Position numbers and translations under genes: made by a program. This document shows positions 14,015 through 30,812 of a stretch of 64,000 nt of DNA, one piece after another (position 1 is the first letter of the stretch; every line of letters starts with the position of its first letter). Source of the stretch: a virus; IMG/VR virus record IMGVR_UViG_3300027920_000641; one strand, 5' to 3'. The notes under the pieces are model-generated. The model was not told where the DNA came from and did not search any database. It saw nothing but the letters and a program-made list of their open reading frames with translations.

Positions 14015-15016
14015 CTACAATTTCAGGTCAGAACCATCATAGGGCCTGTTGCAGTTGCACTCGGCGCAAATGTATCTGAGGTTAGATTGAGCATGTGCTC
14101 CTCCCGCTGCAAGGGGAAGAATATGATCGAGGTGTTTTCCATCTGGGTAATGAGAGTTATCAGCCATTAGTTTTCCACAAACTGGACAGTTAATGGTGTT
14201 TTGTTTTAAATCAATTAACCATTGTGAACTAACTCTCTCTACACCATTCTTTCTCTTTAGAGCTCTTCTCTTACCCTCTTTATTTCTTGAATCAGCACTT
14301 CCCTCTGGGGAGGAATAATAACACTTCTTGCAATATCCATGCCCTTTGTGTGGATATCTTTGGCTGTGACAATTACGACAGTTTTGATAAGACTCACTCC
14401 ACCTTCTAAGCACACATTCATGGGAACAATAGTGAGTTCTTTTTGATGGACATACCAAATAATTTGTTCCGCATGTCCAACAAGTTCTGCTTTCTTTAAT
14501 TGTATTAGCAAGTTTAAATTTTTTAGCGTAAAAAAGACCAACACATCTTCTAGAACAAAACCTACCTTCACCATCGCGAGGATTCTTTTCTTTAAAAAAT
14601 TGTGTTCCGCATACTTCGCAGTGACCTATCTCTCGTTTTTTGTGACACATCTTACACAGACCATTGCCAACATGTTTTCTTTTAGTAGTTCCGCACCTAA
14701 CGCATTGAGGGTATTCCCTAGACCAGGTAAGAAGTTTTTTGTAGGTATAGGGAGAAGATGGACTTTTCCGCAAAGCATGATAGTTTTTCATTTGACAGGA
14801 ACGCGAACAATATTTCCCCGCCCCATTACGTCGCTGAGAAGGACAGTTAACATACGCGATGGGAACATACTCCTTTTTGCAAAACTGGCAGATTCTAGAA
14901 AGAACTGGCTTTATTCTACTTTTACTAGAACAACTGCGAGAACAATAGAGTCCTTTAGATGACCCTTTGGGTAGAAATAGCTCGTGACAGAATAAACACT
15001 CGGCAGGCTGGCGCAC
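14015..15016 (-). CDS. Cys-rich multi-zinc-ribbon HNH endonuclease
   Basis: At least 6 CxxC...(F/Y)CSRxC ribbons followed by the C-terminal HLDHILPLAAGGAHAQSNLRYICAECNCNR HNH motif. Confidence 0.7.
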   Translation of the reverse strand: MRQPAECLFCHELFLPKGSSKGLYCSRSCSSKSRIKPVLSRICQFCKKEYVPIAYVNCPSQRRNGAGKYCSRSCQMKNYHALRKSPSSPYTYKKLLTWSREYPQCVRCGTTKRKHVGNGLCKMCHKKREIGHCEVCGTQFFKEKNPRDGEGRFCSRRCVGLFYAKKFKLANTIKESRTCWTCGTNYLVCPSKRTHYCSHECVLRRWSESYQNCRNCHSQRYPHKGHGYCKKCYYSSPEGSADSRNKEGKRRALKRKNGVERVSSQWLIDLKQNTINCPVCGKLMADNSHYPDGKHLDHILPLAAGGAHAQSNLRYICAECNCNRPYDGSDLKL

Positions 15017-15050: not shown

Positions 15051-15079
15051 TTGACATTTGCGACATTGTCTGTTATAAT
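15051..15079 (+). promoter_or_regulatory. consensus sigma70 promoter (TTGACA-17-TATAAT)
   Basis: TTGACAtttgcgacattgtctgtTATAAT; the predicted TSS coincides with the ATG at 15087 (leaderless). Confidence 0.6.
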
Positions 15080-15086
15080 TACTGGT

Positions 15087-15524
15087 ATGATTAAAATATT
15101 TCCTCAAGTAGAACAGAAAATAGTAACTCTATATGTTAAAAAGAAGCTTTCTTGTAGAGAAATTAAGGAAGAACTTGGTTTAAACATCTCTGTTCGCCAG
15201 ATACAGAGGCGTTTGGGGAAACTAGGAGTGATTCGCAAGCCTGGAGAGGCATTTGCACTAGCTGTTGCCCAGGGAAAAGTGACTTATTACCGCAAGCCGA
15301 AGTCTTTAAATGCCCCAAAAACGGTTCTTTCTACTCTACAGCGGCACAGAGTACTTAGTAGAGATGAATTCAGGTGTCAAGACTGTGGAAATAAGGTTGA
15401 AGATGGTATTCGACTAGAAGTTGTTTTTAAAAATGGGAATATATTGGATAAGCGAGATGAGAATCTTCATTCTTTGTGTAATTTGTGTAGACTTGGTAGA
15501 CAACGGAGTGAAACTGCCTATTGA
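15087..15524 (+). CDS. HTH-domain protein with degenerate HNH-like zinc finger
   Basis: LSCREIKEELGLNISVRQIQRRL HTH; C-terminal CQDCGN...LHSLCNLCR; track ORF trimmed to the first ATG downstream of the promoter. Confidence 0.45.
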   Translation: MIKIFPQVEQKIVTLYVKKKLSCREIKEELGLNISVRQIQRRLGKLGVIRKPGEAFALAVAQGKVTYYRKPKSLNAPKTVLSTLQRHRVLSRDEFRCQDCGNKVEDGIRLEVVFKNGNILDKRDENLHSLCNLCRLGRQRSETAY

Positions 15525-20513: not shown

Positions 20514-20694
20514 TGATTTAGACGACTTATCGCCGACAGATAGTGAGGAATTGGACAGACTACTTAGCCCAGATGTCTTCTTCTGCAGATTTTGTGGAGA
20601 AGAGCTAGTTGGAGAAATGGTGCTTTTTAATCATGAGAAATGGTGCGGTAAGCCAGATGAGCTACCGAAAAAGACACTTGACAAAGATGTATAA
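20506..20694 (+). CDS. small zinc-finger protein
   Basis: CRFCGE...HEKWC C2HC pattern. Confidence 0.45.
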   Translation: MNDDLDDLSPTDSEELDRLLSPDVFFCRFCGEELVGEMVLFNHEKWCGKPDELPKKTLDKDV

Positions 20695-20714
20695 TATGGT
20701 ATAGTATAGAGAAT

Positions 20715-26559: not shown

Positions 26560-26841
26560 ATGACAAATATAGGGTTACTGCCACCTTTACCACCAAGTGA
26601 CAGAGACTCTCTTGATCAGAACAGATATGACGGATTCTATAAAGTTAAGGCAAGAGATTTTTGGGGAGAGAATGAGATCCACCACCTGGATGGCTCCCCA
26701 ACAAAGAGCTGTAAGCACGAGTTTACATCTCAGAAAGGAGGAGTCAGGTGCACTAAGTGCAACTTTGGGCTTCTTGGAGTAGGGCTTTCCGCTAAAGACG
26801 GAGTGGCCTTAGTCCAAGGAGAGCCAATCAGCTTTCCTTAA
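26560..26841 (+). CDS. hypothetical protein
   Basis: ORF track 93 aa. Confidence 0.45.
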   Translation: MTNIGLLPPLPPSDRDSLDQNRYDGFYKVKARDFWGENEIHHLDGSPTKSCKHEFTSQKGGVRCTKCNFGLLGVGLSAKDGVALVQGEPISFP

Positions 26842-26928
26842 GAATGTTGGCAATTCCAGCCACACACACTCAGACGCGGATGCACGCGCGTCATATCATT
26901 AACTAGTGCATGAAAGGAGGTGAGTGAT

Positions 26929-27786
26929 ATGGAACCAAACACATCTAGTGCCCAAGCAGCACAGCCTAACACTCAGGTGGCAGAACCAGTAACAGCGCCA
27001 GTACAACCTGTACAAATACAGGCGCCGATTACGGAACCATCGCAGGATGCAGTAGCTGGTCGAACGAGAGAGCAGTTTGACAAACTACTAGAGAGCAACA
27101 GTCGTCTCTATGAGCAGAACGAACTGATGCGAAAGGAAATGCAGGACAGACTCGGTGGTTTACCACAGAGTGCTCCAGCAGCTCCGCAACCTGATCGGTC
27201 AAAGGCTCCAGCGGCTAATACTGATTACGACTTCTATGAAGTTGATCCGACCTCGGGAGAGACATTTATCAACCGAGAAAAGCTCAACAAATATATGAAG
27301 GACATTCAGGAAAAAGCTAACAGAGCCGAAGTAACAGTGCAAAACATTGTTAAGACGACCGAAGAGAGAGAAATTGAGCGACAAAATACCGAAGCATACG
27401 CTGTCTACCCAGAGCTCAAACTGGGAGCAGAAAAGTTCGATGCAAGCTTCTACCGTCAGGTAAGAGGCACGCTGACAGACTCAATGCTAAACGCAGGTGA
27501 ATACGGTGGTCGCCCATTAACCTTTAAAGAGGCTGCTGATTTTGTGAGGGGCATAGCTCCTGGTGCAACTCCAGTAGCAGATCAAGGAACTTCTTCAGCG
27601 AATGAAGGAGCGGCTTTGAAAGAGGCGGGGTCAGCCCAAGTGTCGTCCCAGCATCAACAGCAGATACCACTGCAAGATGCTGATGAGCTCAGAGCTCTAC
27701 AGGTAGCGACGCGATATGGAAGCACTGAAGCCCTAGCTGAACGCATTAAGCACTCTCCGCATATTAAGGCTGGAGAGCAAGCCTAG
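26929..27786 (+). CDS. putative scaffolding protein
   Basis: AAAGGAGG RBS 7 nt before the ATG at 26929; acidic, Ala/Gln/Pro-rich, coiled-coil (REQFDKLLESNSRLYEQNELMRKEMQDRL); position between portal and capsid. Confidence 0.5.
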   Translation: MEPNTSSAQAAQPNTQVAEPVTAPVQPVQIQAPITEPSQDAVAGRTREQFDKLLESNSRLYEQNELMRKEMQDRLGGLPQSAPAAPQPDRSKAPAANTDYDFYEVDPTSGETFINREKLNKYMKDIQEKANRAEVTVQNIVKTTEEREIERQNTEAYAVYPELKLGAEKFDASFYRQVRGTLTDSMLNAGEYGGRPLTFKEAADFVRGIAPGATPVADQGTSSANEGAALKEAGSAQVSSQHQQQIPLQDADELRALQVATRYGSTEALAERIKHSPHIKAGEQA

Positions 27787-27910
27787 TAATGGTTGATACC
27801 ACTTCTACCATTACTGGAAATTAGCAGTGGTAGAAAGGACAAAAAAATATGGCCTGGGGTTGATTAAACGGCCCCATATAATGAAGCCAAATGCTGGAAC
27901 ACCCTAAAGC

Positions 27911-27938
27911 TTGACTTACTTAAATTATGGCGTATAAT
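27911..27938 (+). promoter_or_regulatory. sigma70-type promoter (TTGACT-16-TATAAT) for the LAGLIDADG gene
   Basis: TTGACTtacttaaattatggcgTATAAT; the ATG at 27949 sits at the predicted TSS. Confidence 0.55.
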
Positions 27939-27948
27939 AGTAGCCATA

Positions 27949-28464
27949 ATGAGTGACAATAGTCAAGATATTACAATGGGCAATCAGCAGGAAAGACTGC
28001 TCTTTAAGATTGGATACCTCATAGGTATCATCGATGGAGAAGGATCTTGCCAGTTTGGATATAAATATCTTTATAAAGGATGTAAGGTTTTTACTCCTAA
28101 AATAACTATTTATAATACCAACCCAGCAATCATTCTTCAAACGAAAACATTCTTGGACGAATTGGGTTTTTCTTATTACTGTTACGCCACAAAAATGCAT
28201 GGGAAAGAACAGTGGCTAGGATGGAGAGTAGAATTAATAGGTTTGAAAAGAATCAAAGAATTGACAGATCTATTGCTACCATATCCAAGCGGTAAAAAAG
28301 AAAGATTGCAGGTGCTGAATGATTTTTGCACCTACAGATTGTCTAAGAATAAAGAAAAATATGCAGAAGAGGACCAAAAATATTTTATAAAGTTGCGCGA
28401 TTTGAATCGACTTTATAGGGGAAAAAGAGCAGAATCCTCAGAGACTACACGCTTCACGGTTTAG
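27949..28464 (+). CDS. LAGLIDADG homing endonuclease (single-motif)
   Basis: KIGYLIGIIDGEGSC is a LAGLIDADG motif; 171 aa; alternative start 27976. Confidence 0.75.
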   Translation: MSDNSQDITMGNQQERLLFKIGYLIGIIDGEGSCQFGYKYLYKGCKVFTPKITIYNTNPAIILQTKTFLDELGFSYYCYATKMHGKEQWLGWRVELIGLKRIKELTDLLLPYPSGKKERLQVLNDFCTYRLSKNKEKYAEEDQKYFIKLRDLNRLYRGKRAESSETTRFTV

Positions 28465-28659
28465 CGCCGATGATATAGTCCGAACTCCATCGAAATATGG
28501 AGACTGAACAAGAAATTAGTTCAGAGTATCAAATAACATTGATATATCAACAATTTTGCTTATCACTTATCAGGACGCTGCAAGACGCGAGGATTTACTT
28601 GACGTTATTGGAGATGTTTCACCAGATAAAGTTTAGTCTGGCACTAGGTTTAATTATGA

Positions 28660-28688
28660 TTGACAAGTTAATAGGGCAGTGATACACT
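28660..28688 (+). promoter_or_regulatory. sigma70-type promoter (TTGACA-17-TACACT) for the HNH gene
   Basis: TTGACAagttaatagggcagtgaTACACT; ATG 28695 at the predicted TSS. Confidence 0.5.
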
Positions 28689-28694
28689 ACACAA

Positions 28695-29201
28695 ATGACT
28701 ACTGTCTCAGGTGTATGTGCACAATGCGGAGTTTTTTTTACGGCTTTTAATCGTAAGGAATCTAAGAATTCTTTTTGTAATCAAAAATGTTATTTTGCAT
28801 TCAAAAGATTACACAGACCAGAAGCAAACTGTATTTGTGAATGGTGTCAAGAAAAATTCTATAGAAAACAATCCGCTATCAAGAATGGAGAAGGAAAATT
28901 CTGTTCAAGAAAATGCAAACATACAGCACAAAGAGAAGGTATAATTATTAGGGGAGAGTCATACAACGATAGACACTTGATTAGGCAATCATCAGCTTAT
29001 AAGAGCTGGAGAGCAGCAGCTAAGAAACTTAAAGGTAATCGTTGTGAAAAGTGCGGTGCAGAGGAAGGTAAAAAGTGTGATTGTTGCGGATATATAATTT
29101 ATCTGCATGTTCATCACATTAAACCATTCTCAACATACCCAGAACTTAGATTCGATCCATCTAATGCTTCTGTATTGTGTCCTAAATGTCATCATAATTG
29201 A
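28695..29201 (+). CDS. HNH homing endonuclease
   Basis: Zinc ribbons (FCNQKC, GKFCSRKC) followed by the HVHHIKPFSTYPELRFDPSNASVLCPKCHH HNH motif. Confidence 0.8.
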   Translation: MTTVSGVCAQCGVFFTAFNRKESKNSFCNQKCYFAFKRLHRPEANCICEWCQEKFYRKQSAIKNGEGKFCSRKCKHTAQREGIIIRGESYNDRHLIRQSSAYKSWRAAAKKLKGNRCEKCGAEEGKKCDCCGYIIYLHVHHIKPFSTYPELRFDPSNASVLCPKCHHN

Positions 29202-29416
29202 GCGGGTGAAAAATAATTAGAGGTGAATTGCTGGAAAGTCCAGAAAGGATAATCAGCAGCCAAGCCAAGGAATTGCGAAAGGTTCTTGGAAGGTTCGACG
29301 GTCAGGACTGAGGAAACAATAATGTCCACAAGTGCCTCTCCCGAAAGGGAAGATATGACCTGAACTATACGGTTGAACGCATAGAAGCAAGAAATAGAAA
29401 ACTTGCGATAACACAA

Positions 29417-30247
29417 TTGGAAACACCTTTGATGACTCTCTTTGGTACATCAACAGTAGCAAACACTCTACACGAGTGGTTGAAACTAAACGTTAGTCGC
29501 CCAGTATCTGTTACGGCAGATATTGAAGGAGCTGACACTACTTTTGGTGACTTGACACAACCTTCAAGAGAAAGTAACGTAACTCACATCATCAAGCAAG
29601 CAGTTCAAGTTTCACGCACAGAACGACGTGTTAATGTCGCAGCTATGGGTGATCCTTATGCTTTCCAAAAAGCAGAGGCTCTTCGAGAGCTTAAAATGAA
29701 GATGGAATATGCCCTTCTTAACTCTACTAAAGCATCTGGTTCATCTGGTGTTGCTCGTTACATGACGGGTATTGATGCCTTCATCACTTCTATCGTAACA
29801 GCTCGTAACTCTGGTACTTCGTACTCAGAAACCGAACTTAACGATATGTCTGCTGATGGGTATCTCGCTGTGAGATCTGACAAAGTGTTCGACATGTTGC
29901 TATGTACTGTCAAAATCAAGCAAGCAATTGCTGGTTTCGGTGGTAACTCAACACGTTACATCGACGCATCTGAACGACGTTTAACCAAGGATATCTTGGT
30001 TTACGATTCAGCCGTTGGTTCACACAAAATCATGCATCACAGAGATGTTAGAAACACTGCTGGGTCTGTAACCGTTTATGGTCTTCGCGAGGAGATGCAT
30101 AAAGTTGCTTATCTCGACAAACCTATGTTTGAAGAGTTAGCAAAAGTTGGAGACGCAGATCGTGGACATTGGGTAACTGAGTTCACGGCAGAAGTGCTTG
30201 AGGAAAAAGCTGACATGAAGCGTACTGGTTATAATCAAAACGGATAA
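29417..30247 (+). CDS. putative major capsid protein
   Basis: First large ORF after scaffold; 276 aa; positional inference only, no motif confirmation. Confidence 0.45.
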   Translation: METPLMTLFGTSTVANTLHEWLKLNVSRPVSVTADIEGADTTFGDLTQPSRESNVTHIIKQAVQVSRTERRVNVAAMGDPYAFQKAEALRELKMKMEYALLNSTKASGSSGVARYMTGIDAFITSIVTARNSGTSYSETELNDMSADGYLAVRSDKVFDMLLCTVKIKQAIAGFGGNSTRYIDASERRLTKDILVYDSAVGSHKIMHHRDVRNTAGSVTVYGLREEMHKVAYLDKPMFEELAKVGDADRGHWVTEFTAEVLEEKADMKRTGYNQNG

Positions 30248-30425
30248 GTTTTTTGATTAGTAACTATAGTCCAACGACAGATTAAAACGGAGGGTATCTA
30301 TCACGCTCCTAGTCGTTGAAAAGATAGACATTAAGTATTTCTCCTGACAAGGTTTGAATACTTAAATCAATATAAACTGGGGCCTCTGTGTTTTGCAAAC
30401 CTCACGGGGGCTCCAGTAGATACAT

Positions 30426-30812
30426 ATGCAACCAATTGTTATTAACGAAAACGGTAAAATAAGAGAAGTCGAGAAAGTAGAACTCGCTGAAAAGATTGTG
30501 GAGATGCGCGGCAAGAAAGACCCGTGGGAAGTTATAGATAAACTTTTGGGGGTCTGGGCCACAACTACTCCAGATGAAGTCGAGGCAGTTCTGATCAATG
30601 TGGACCAGTACAGAGAGTCACAGCATGATCAAGAATTTGGCCAGACGGATAATGGGAAAGATTTTGAAAGAAGATTCAAACTGGCTTTTCCTAGAAATTT
30701 AATGTTAATGATTCGTACTCAGTATAAGGCAGATGAGCTGCCAATGGACCAGAAGTTTTTTGAAGAATTTGGGAAGAGGTACCCGATATTCAAAGTTAGC
30801 CAGAAAGATTAA
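30426..30812 (+). CDS. hypothetical protein
   Basis: ORF track 128 aa. Confidence 0.5.
   Translation: MQPIVINENGKIREVEKVELAEKIVEMRGKKDPWEVIDKLLGVWATTTPDEVEAVLINVDQYRESQHDQEFGQTDNGKDFERRFKLAFPRNLMLMIRTQYKADELPMDQKFFEEFGKRYPIFKVSQKD

Follow-up and report, generated by a model that had tools for sequence, protein, structure and literature searches.

In the viral genome record IMGVR_UViG_3300027920_000641 from IMG/VR (hereinafter the window, that is, the whole analyzed stretch of 64,000 nucleotides (nt)), the gene for the major capsid protein (MCP; SU10_MCP/DUF5309 family) is, with high confidence, interrupted by two group I introns that split it into exons of 12, 69 and 828 nt. Intron 1 (27861..28558, + strand; 698 nt, 35.5% guanine plus cytosine (GC)) encloses an open reading frame (ORF) for a single-motif LAGLIDADG homing endonuclease of 171 amino acids (aa) (27949..28464, +), and intron 2 (28628..29419, +; 792 nt, 37.4% GC) contains an ORF for an HNH homing endonuclease of 168 aa (28695..29201, +). 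An earlier reading of this sequence (hereinafter the original prediction) had noticed non-coding segments of about 200 base pairs (bp) around the two ORFs and proposed one or two mobile group I introns with their homing endonucleases, possibly splitting the capsid gene. The segments are indeed present (27787-27948, 162 nt; 28465-28694, 230 nt; 29202-29416, 215 nt), and the proposal is borne out in the form of two introns. The endonuclease ORFs do not lie, as had been stated, between the scaffold and capsid genes: the capsid gene begins at 27849, 5' of both.

Removal of the two elements restores an uninterrupted frame that is colinear with the intron-less homologues. Exon 1 (27849..27860, +; ATGGCCTGGGGT) encodes MAWG, the first residues of homologues that begin MAWGLITYQ...; exon 2 (28559..28627, +; LITYQDAARREDLLDVIGDVSPD) encodes LITYQ...DVSPD; and exon 3 (29420..30247, +; stop codon included) starts with ETPLMTLFGTS.... 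Joined, the three make 909 nt or 302 aa, and the N-terminus of the spliced protein would read (M)AWGLITYQDAARREDLLDVIGDVSPDETPLM. This product is identical to the protein P0001 at 277 of 302 positions, including all of residues 1-40, which cover both junctions. Hundreds of close homologues in a large protein collection (77-92% identical; PF17236, SU10_MCP) are nearly all exactly 302 aa long and start with MAWGLITYQDAARREDLLDVIGDVSPDETPLMTLFGTS, and in an intron-less relative (contig L010) the capsid DNA is contiguous; the implied exon joins are TGGGGT to CTTATC and CCAGAT to GAAACA. The unspliced capsid ORF (29417-30247, TTG start) is left without the N-terminus; annotated distant relatives (Pseudomonas phage TL gp60, pelagiphage HTVC106P and Manatee Spring podoviruses) begin 26-30 codons earlier, with the N-terminal stretch ...REDLxDVIYNISPTETPF...HEW. 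In the capsid frame of the window, a TGA directly follows exon 1 and a TAG is the third codon after exon 2. A megablast search with 26900-30300 against GenBank phages yielded no match.

The termini of both elements are those of group I introns. Both 5' splice sites follow the U of a U-G wobble in a 6-bp helix P1, namely, UGGGGU/GCCCCA with U27860-G27871 in intron 1 and CCAGAU/GUCUGG with U28627-G28636 in intron 2, and both introns end in G (G28558 and G29419), as do those in the related contigs L005, L009, L021-L023, L028 and L070. In the P1 of intron 2, a synonymous change in the exon is compensated on the intron side (CCAGAU/GUCUGG in the window vs CCUGAU/GUUAGG in L023). The check suggested in the original prediction, a cmsearch with the Rfam group I model RF00028, detected both loci in a local scan, at 27.6 bits for the 3' half of intron 1 (E = 1.6e-4) and 23.7 bits for intron 2 (E = 2.3e-3), and when the entire 64-kb window was scanned permissively against all 4227 Rfam families, the top two matches were RF00028 at these same loci, the sole repeated family. 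At the gathering threshold, Rfam gave no matches in the window, L005, L009 or L010. The low scores are due to the splitting of the cores by the ORFs and the poor fit of the model to these subtypes: an ORF-less homologue of intron 2 (266 nt) that occupies the same capsid site in L005 reaches only 24.1 bits and related capsid introns 24-26 bits; a capsid intron with a contiguous core in L021 and L028 scores 44.8 bits (E = 5.5e-10). No further introns were found in the window with the signature motifs of both introns (up to 3 mismatches) or in the permissive whole-window Rfam scan.

Through a partial relative of its LAGLIDADG ORF, intron 1 was linked to a contig (L099) with a distant SU10-type capsid gene that carries a homologous intron elsewhere in the gene, with a decayed ORF. 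A 15-mer common to the window and this contig, GAATCCTCAGAGACT, recovered more than 120 viral contigs, with at least 39 distinct introns followed by the expected downstream core. The resulting structure consists of P1 (27855-60/27871-76), P3 (27882-87/28451-56), P4 (27892-97/27984-89), P5 (27902-04/27978-80), P5a (27910-16/27961-67), P5b (27925-31/27943-49), P6 (27990-92/28435-37), P6a (27997-28002/28427-32), P7 (28443-47/28476-80), P8 (28457-60/28466-69), P9 (28485-90/28497-502), P9.1 (28504-09/28519-24) and P9.2 (28527-32/28539-44). P2 is missing from intron 1, and P10 is weak. In an alignment of ten sequences (A3) covering P3, P4, P5, P6, P6a, P7, P8 and P9, 96.6% of the cells are paired, compared to 30-44% when the partners are slid; 20 of the 38 pairs show compensatory changes, and 0 of 500 shuffles reach the observed values. 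For example, P3 is CUUGGC/GCCAAG in L099 and UGAAGC/GCUUCA in the window. Unconstrained folding of the P4-P5 segment of the window yields P4, P5, P5a and P5b. In a blastn search with the intron-1 core, nothing was found at E <= 1e-3, and at E <= 10 only generic core blocks of 34-50 nt appeared.

The LAGLIDADG ORF is threaded through the catalytic core of intron 1. It starts in the extension of P5 and runs through the 3' strand of P4 and through P6; its body fills the loop of P6a (CUGCUC/GAGCAG); it then passes through the 3' strand of P6, P7 and the 3' strand of P3, and its stop codon lies in the loop of P8. This path follows from compact ORF-less members of the family, in which the segment that forms the P4 3' strand and the P6 5' strand (CAAUCAGCAGGAAAG) corresponds to the first LAGLIDADG codons of the window. 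The tetranucleotide AGCA at 28429-32 was considered as the 3' strand of P4 and rejected: family comparison puts it in P6a, the real strand being UCAGCA at 27984-89. Ribozyme strands thus encode the conserved N-terminus (QDxTIGNQQERL) and C-terminus (ESSETIR) of the protein, and because the ORF overlaps P4-P8, the identity of ~17 residues at its start and ~10 at its end is set by the RNA structure.

The structure of intron 2 includes P1 (28622-27/28636-41), P10 (28631-34/29421-24), P2 (28642-60/29191-29208), P3 (29219-24/29334-39), P4 (29229-34/29253-58), P5 (29239-41/29247-49), P6 (29259-61/29292-94), P6a (29265-71/29283-89), P7 (29300-04/29356-60), P7.1 (29305-08/29324-27), P8 (29340-42/29347-49), P9 (29365-71/29378-84) and P9.1 (29387-90/29403-06). 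P2 closes the loop that holds the HNH ORF, and its 3' strand coincides with the last HNH codons. A scan of IMG/VR with the invariant 15-base J6/7-P7 motif retrieved at least 16 true relatives of this intron, from phages of widely differing GC content and in various host genes. From an 18-sequence alignment, RNAalifold recovered P4, P5, P6, P6a, P7, P7.1, P8, P9 and P9.1 unguided, with compensatory changes in 27 of 42 pairs; with P3 added as a pseudoknot, 93.4% of the cells are paired (35-41% with slid partners) and 183 show double changes (21-37 when slid), values that none of 500 shuffles reach. Minimum free energy folds of the window sequence give the proposed helices as well. Across both families, the covarying helices are P3, P5, P6a, P8 and P9. 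Pairings P7.1 and P7.2 between P7 and the 3' strand of P3 define subgroup IA in the classification of Michel & Westhof, to which the introns of phage T4 belong. In intron 2, three of the four P7.1 pairs covary, and P7.2 was not identified; in intron 1, only 3 nt separate P7 from P3', hence it is not of the P7.1/P7.2 type.

The ribozyme motifs that the original prediction had picked out 3' of the ORFs are real and fall into these models: GACTA (28443-47) with TAGTC (28476-80) is P7 and the CTCCAT/ATGGAG hairpin is P9 of intron 1; GGTCA (29300-04) with TGACC (29356-60) is P7, CCC-GAAA-GGG is P8 and GCAAG/CTTGC is P9.1 of intron 2. It overlooked the 5' halves of both ribozymes: in intron 1, P1 and P3-P6, which precede the LAGLIDADG ORF and extend into its beginning, and in intron 2, P1-P2, which precede the HNH ORF. 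One motif was misassigned: the supposed Q element GGAATTGCGAAAGG (29269-82) belongs to the loop region of the P6a hairpin and is not the Q strand of P4, which is formed by UUGCUG and CAGCAG.

Relatives of both introns occur in other genetic contexts. Members of the intron-1 family split phage transfer RNA (tRNA) genes in the anticodon loop (L152, about 300-560, - strand; L178; L193), with the 5' exon ending in ...GTAGCTCAGCTGGTAGAGCAACAGACTTTGAA and the 3' exon reading ...GGTAAGTTAATCTGTGGGTCGTGGGTTCGAGCCCCACC. The distant capsid gene in L099 (1179-1628, 2400-2780) apparently contains two introns, one near the 5' end that is preceded by an intact LAGLIDADG ORF, and the intron-1 homologue with its decayed ORF near the 3' end of the gene, with the 5' splice site after ...GGAATGCAT. 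When the intron-2 core was compared with GenBank phages, only ~43 nt of P4-P5 matched, in Flavobacterium, crAss-like and Xanthomonas phages. Over these 43 nt (29229-29271), unannotated regions in Flavobacterium psychrophilum phages (FpV/FPSV group) and in Xanthomonas phage DES1 show ~91% identity; the block also matches crAss-like phage cr50_1, where an overlapping ORF is annotated as 'putative intron-encoded HNH endonuclease'. Judging from these matches, the Flavobacterium phage, DES1 and cr50_1 genomes probably hold unannotated introns of the intron-2 family.

The scaffold gene (26920-27786) is not involved in the split. The original prediction had suggested checking whether its end and the start of the MCP gene form one continuous homologue in related phages; the MCP N-terminus is indeed continuous in homologues, and the scaffold has no part in it. 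Two features of the 62-nt spacer between the two genes (27787-27848) are probably without meaning, the mini-ORF MVDTTSTITGN (27790-27825) and a weak Rfam match below threshold (cow-rumen-3, 17.1 bits, E = 0.62); this stretch is regarded as intergenic because uninterrupted homologues place the true start at MAWG, 27849. An assignment of MVDTTSTITGN to exon 1 and of the nearby AGTGGTAG to the guide sequence of intron 1 was also tried; it allowed no junction that kept the frame and had both the U-G pair and the final G. In relatives, the distance from a GGAGGTGA-like box to the capsid ATG downstream of it is unusually large (17-25 nt).

Under the proposed scenario, the scaffold-capsid transcript would arise as a precursor from which the two introns, folded as group I ribozymes, excise themselves by two-step, guanosine-initiated transesterification, with cleavage after U27860 and U28627 and ligation after G28558 and G29419. 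The ligated exons would yield a messenger RNA (mRNA) for the 302-aa capsid protein, and the capsid-frame stop codons just after each 5' splice site would keep ribosomes off the ribozyme.

Several points weigh against this interpretation. Splicing in vivo is a prediction from sequence and structure; both introns score below the RF00028 gathering score of 50 bits; the model of intron 1 was drawn by hand from the same sequences on which it was evaluated, which somewhat inflates its advantage over the slid controls; P4, P6 and P7 are invariant within each intron family, so that covariation is uninformative for these helices in both families; and neither endonuclease has a sequence-level match to a solved or characterized enzyme. 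An alternative is that the endonucleases are encoded by free-standing genes, located between the scaffold gene and a capsid gene of reduced length (start at TTG 29417 or ATG 29432), that the RNA structures belong to untranslated regions (UTRs), and that MAWG and LITYQ...SPD are dead remnants. The sub-threshold Rfam scores fit this reading, and public gene calls do list a 271-aa capsid ORF (P0002, P0118; start ATG 29432). However, all uninterrupted homologues conserve the 27 N-terminal residues, which the window keeps perfectly, in two pieces and in frame, where remnants would decay; both pieces are flanked by a P1 with a U-G pair and by a terminal G; and the ribozyme cores covary strongly. Moreover, the insertion is not simply an endonuclease gene because an ORF-less intron fills the same site in L005. 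The original prediction itself had named, as the outcome that would speak against introns, free-standing endonucleases with long 5' UTR structures and no covariance-model match; what we found are RF00028 matches, covarying cores and a restored frame, and we consider free-standing genes very unlikely.

It is also improbable that these are group I introns of which one or both cannot splice alone, either because a protein cofactor is needed (the LAGLIDADG protein acting as a maturase, or a host factor) or because the copy is defective. The LAGLIDADG ORF overlaps much of the core of intron 1, and such overlap of ORF and core is the arrangement in which maturase activity evolved in organellar introns; the absence of P2 and the weak P10 of intron 1 point in the same direction. 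Against this possibility, all core helices are intact, and the window fits the family consensus at the invariant positions; independent assemblies from several samples show the same arrangement (six contigs carry P0002), and L070 has the same layout. The capsid gene is essential, and therefore a non-splicing copy should not persist. As for other kinds of intervening elements, LAGLIDADG or HNH domains within conserved phage genes are also a feature of inteins, but the capsid frame meets stop codons at or within three codons of each 5' junction, which rules out an insert translated within the host protein, and the endonuclease ORFs have their own start codons. A group II intron is contradicted by the lack of any match to group II families at E <= 1 in the whole window and of a reverse-transcriptase ORF, the ORFs present being LAGLIDADG and HNH; for translational bypass, insertions of 698 and 792 nt far exceed any known case. 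An intein, a group II intron or a bypass is thus hardly conceivable here. We retain the interpretation of two group I introns, both predicted to splice themselves.

The LAGLIDADG protein narrowly misses the Pfam cutoff (LAGLIDADG_3, PF14528: 22.2 bits vs 22.5), and because of this shortfall of 0.3 bits, the assignment was checked by structure. An AlphaFold (AF2) model built with ten homologues (predicted local distance difference test score of 80.8, predicted template modeling (TM) score of 0.75) has the alpha-beta-beta-alpha-beta-beta-alpha topology, and a Foldseek search against the PDB retrieved I-CreI, I-CvuI, I-MsoI and I-Vdi141I (probability 1.00, E about 1e-6, TM scores of about 0.6-0.67). 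The motif LIGIIDGEGS is present, with D29, G30, E31 and G32 invariant across ten homologues. The protein thus resembles I-CreI, I-CvuI and I-MsoI in its single-motif fold, a comparable size (~150-170 aa) and its encoding in a group I intron; it differs from them in sequence (14-20% identity) and in the overlap of its ORF with P4-P8, and theirs are introns of algal chloroplast rRNA. The HNH protein exceeds the Pfam cutoff for this beta-beta-alpha-metal motif (PF01844, 26.6 bits vs 21.4, residues 117-167), matches phrog_1271 with E = 1.9e-20 and displays the pattern CEKCG...HVHHIKPF...CPKCHH. A sequence search of both endonucleases against the PDB gave no significant match. In co-infecting relatives, both enzymes would cut capsid alleles that lack the intron, and the break would be repaired from the intron-bearing allele, so that the intron is copied in.

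Both endonuclease ORFs are preceded by sigma-70-like promoter matches, the two best in 26800-30500. Before the LAGLIDADG ORF, TTGACT-16-TATAAT (27911..27938, +; 11 of 12 consensus positions) lies in P5a/P5b and ends 10 nt before the ATG, its -35 box being one strand of P5a and the ATG adjoining the P5b stem; before the HNH ORF, TTGACA-17-TACACT (28660..28688, +; 10 of 12, with an extended -10 TG) comes, with its -35 box, after the 5' strand of P2 and ends 6 nt before the ATG. The original prediction had placed both start codons at the transcription start; both promoter-like sites are present, and the HNH ATG does coincide with the predicted start, but the LAGLIDADG ORF would have a leader of 3-5 nt. 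A caveat is that matches of at least 10 of 12 to TTGACA-N16-18-TATAAT occur in the window at the chance rate (14 vs 14.1 expected per strand), and therefore the promoter inference rests only on conserved position: in all 8 of 8 intron endonuclease ORFs, of three types and at four sites, such a match ends 6-11 nt before an ATG that lacks a Shine-Dalgarno (SD) sequence. This regularity suggests near-leaderless expression of the endonucleases. They would be transcribed from their own promoters embedded in ribozyme helices, and with an SD-less ATG 6-10 nt after the -10 box, the mRNAs would have no leader or almost none; translation would then be confined to transcripts initiated at these promoters, to the exclusion of the precursor RNA, by the same logic as for I-TevI of T4. 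In the literature collection searched, no relevant report on leaderless intron endonucleases was found.

The window has more endonuclease-like genes, at least one of which shares the near-leaderless promoter layout of the intron ORFs. At 15051-15524 (+), a perfect TTGACA-17-TATAAT (15051-15079) stands 7 nt before the ATG (15087) of an HNH-like ORF (..CQDCGN..LHSLCNLC), and a 333-aa, CxxC-rich ORF at 14015-15016 (-) has a C-terminal HNH motif. Another match, TTGACA-16-TATAGT (20678-20705; 11 of 12), precedes by 9 nt the ATG (20715) of what is only a short ORF (<70 aa).

The introns are patchily distributed among related capsid genes. Among the IMG/VR relatives, 13 of 18 are uninterrupted; the intron-bearing set comprises the remaining IMG/VR relatives and contigs found via truncated protein calls. 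Introns occupy at least five positions within the first 81 nt of the gene: after nt 12 in the window, after nt 13 in L070, after nt 22 in L005, L009 and L026, after nt 45 in L021 and L028, and after nt 81 in the window, L005, L022, L023, L070 and L097. The intron after nt 81 contains an intact HNH ORF in the window, L022 and L023, one with a premature stop in L070 (- strand) and none in L005; in L026 (3080-3520), only N- and C-terminal LAGLIDADG remnants persist inside an otherwise intact intron, and LAGLIDADG remnants are found in L099 too. Homologues of intron 1 reside at another capsid position in L099 and in tRNA genes elsewhere. This patchiness, together with the stages of endonuclease decay, is the pattern expected of homing introns, from which we infer mobility. 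More tentatively, the first 81 nt might be a contested landing zone in which several unrelated intron-endonuclease pairs, with five splice positions and three endonuclease types, may have inserted independently, sharing a design of host-type promoters and SD-less starts within ribozyme helices (P5a/P5b in intron 1, beside P2 in intron 2) and expressing their endonucleases solely from leaderless transcripts; we regard this combination as less likely than not.

The closest parallels are found among other phage introns. As in T4, group I introns reside in phage protein genes and loop the endonuclease ORF out of what is here a predicted ribozyme, and intron 2 has, between P7 and P3', the extra hairpin P7.1, of a kind typical for subgroup IA, that of the T4 introns. 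Unlike in T4, the host gene encodes a capsid protein and is not involved in nucleotide metabolism, the enzymes are of the LAGLIDADG and HNH types compared with GIY-YIG for two of the three T4 enzymes, and the promoter matches follow the host sigma-70 consensus rather than that of T4 middle or late promoters. At the DNA level, no similarity between the two sets of introns is detectable. In T4, too, promoters are located inside the introns just upstream of the endonuclease ORFs, and translation from the read-through precursor is blocked by a hairpin that hides the ribosome-binding site (PMC2988022), a block that is only proposed here and that, with no SD sequence to sequester, would operate through leaderless mRNA. 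In the major capsid gene of mycobacteriophage LittleE, an 819-bp insertion with an HNH ORF, absent from relatives, follows a first exon that ends in U and itself terminates in G, and its splicing was shown by reverse transcription PCR and N-terminal sequencing; lactococcal phage Tuc2009 likewise has an intron in the major capsid gene, as in the tailed phage described here (PMC3706429). LittleE and Tuc2009 each have one intron, whereas in the window a first exon of 12 nt is followed by two introns that lie 69 nt apart; the HNH gene of LittleE is on the opposite strand, and the capsid families and intron sequences of both phages are unrelated to those of the window. Several group I introns in one phage gene are also described for orf142 of Staphylococcus phage Twort, with three (as cited in PMC6669764); by that description the situation is alike, although the gene and host differ.

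Endonuclease-bearing group I introns are classic in phages, capsid genes included, and the present locus is a further example that leaves the known mechanism of these introns unchanged. Distinctive here are the 12-nt first exon and the 69-nt micro-exon, the five insertion positions within 81 nt among relatives, the endonuclease ORF threaded through the catalytic core, and the conserved near-leaderless promoter layout. In automatic gene calls, the capsid protein is shortened to 271 aa and the endonucleases appear as separate genes; the true product would be a 302-aa protein encoded in three exons. Both intron families are widespread, yet they are missed at the curated Rfam threshold. One 15-base motif per family was enough to find related introns in viral metagenome contigs (at least 16 for intron 2 and at least 39 for intron 1); a considerable number of group I introns in phages thus probably lack annotation, and covariance models specific to these subtypes would find them.

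The locus provides a compact natural series for the study of intron homing, in which the same gene has no intron or introns at five positions, with the endonuclease intact, broken or absent, and it raises the testable idea of leaderless expression of intron endonucleases. An intron endonuclease of phage PhiPA3 is reported to act as a weapon in phage-phage competition. If the enzymes described here also cut the capsid gene of co-infecting intron-less relatives, these introns would be weapons in conflicts between phages rather than passive parasites.

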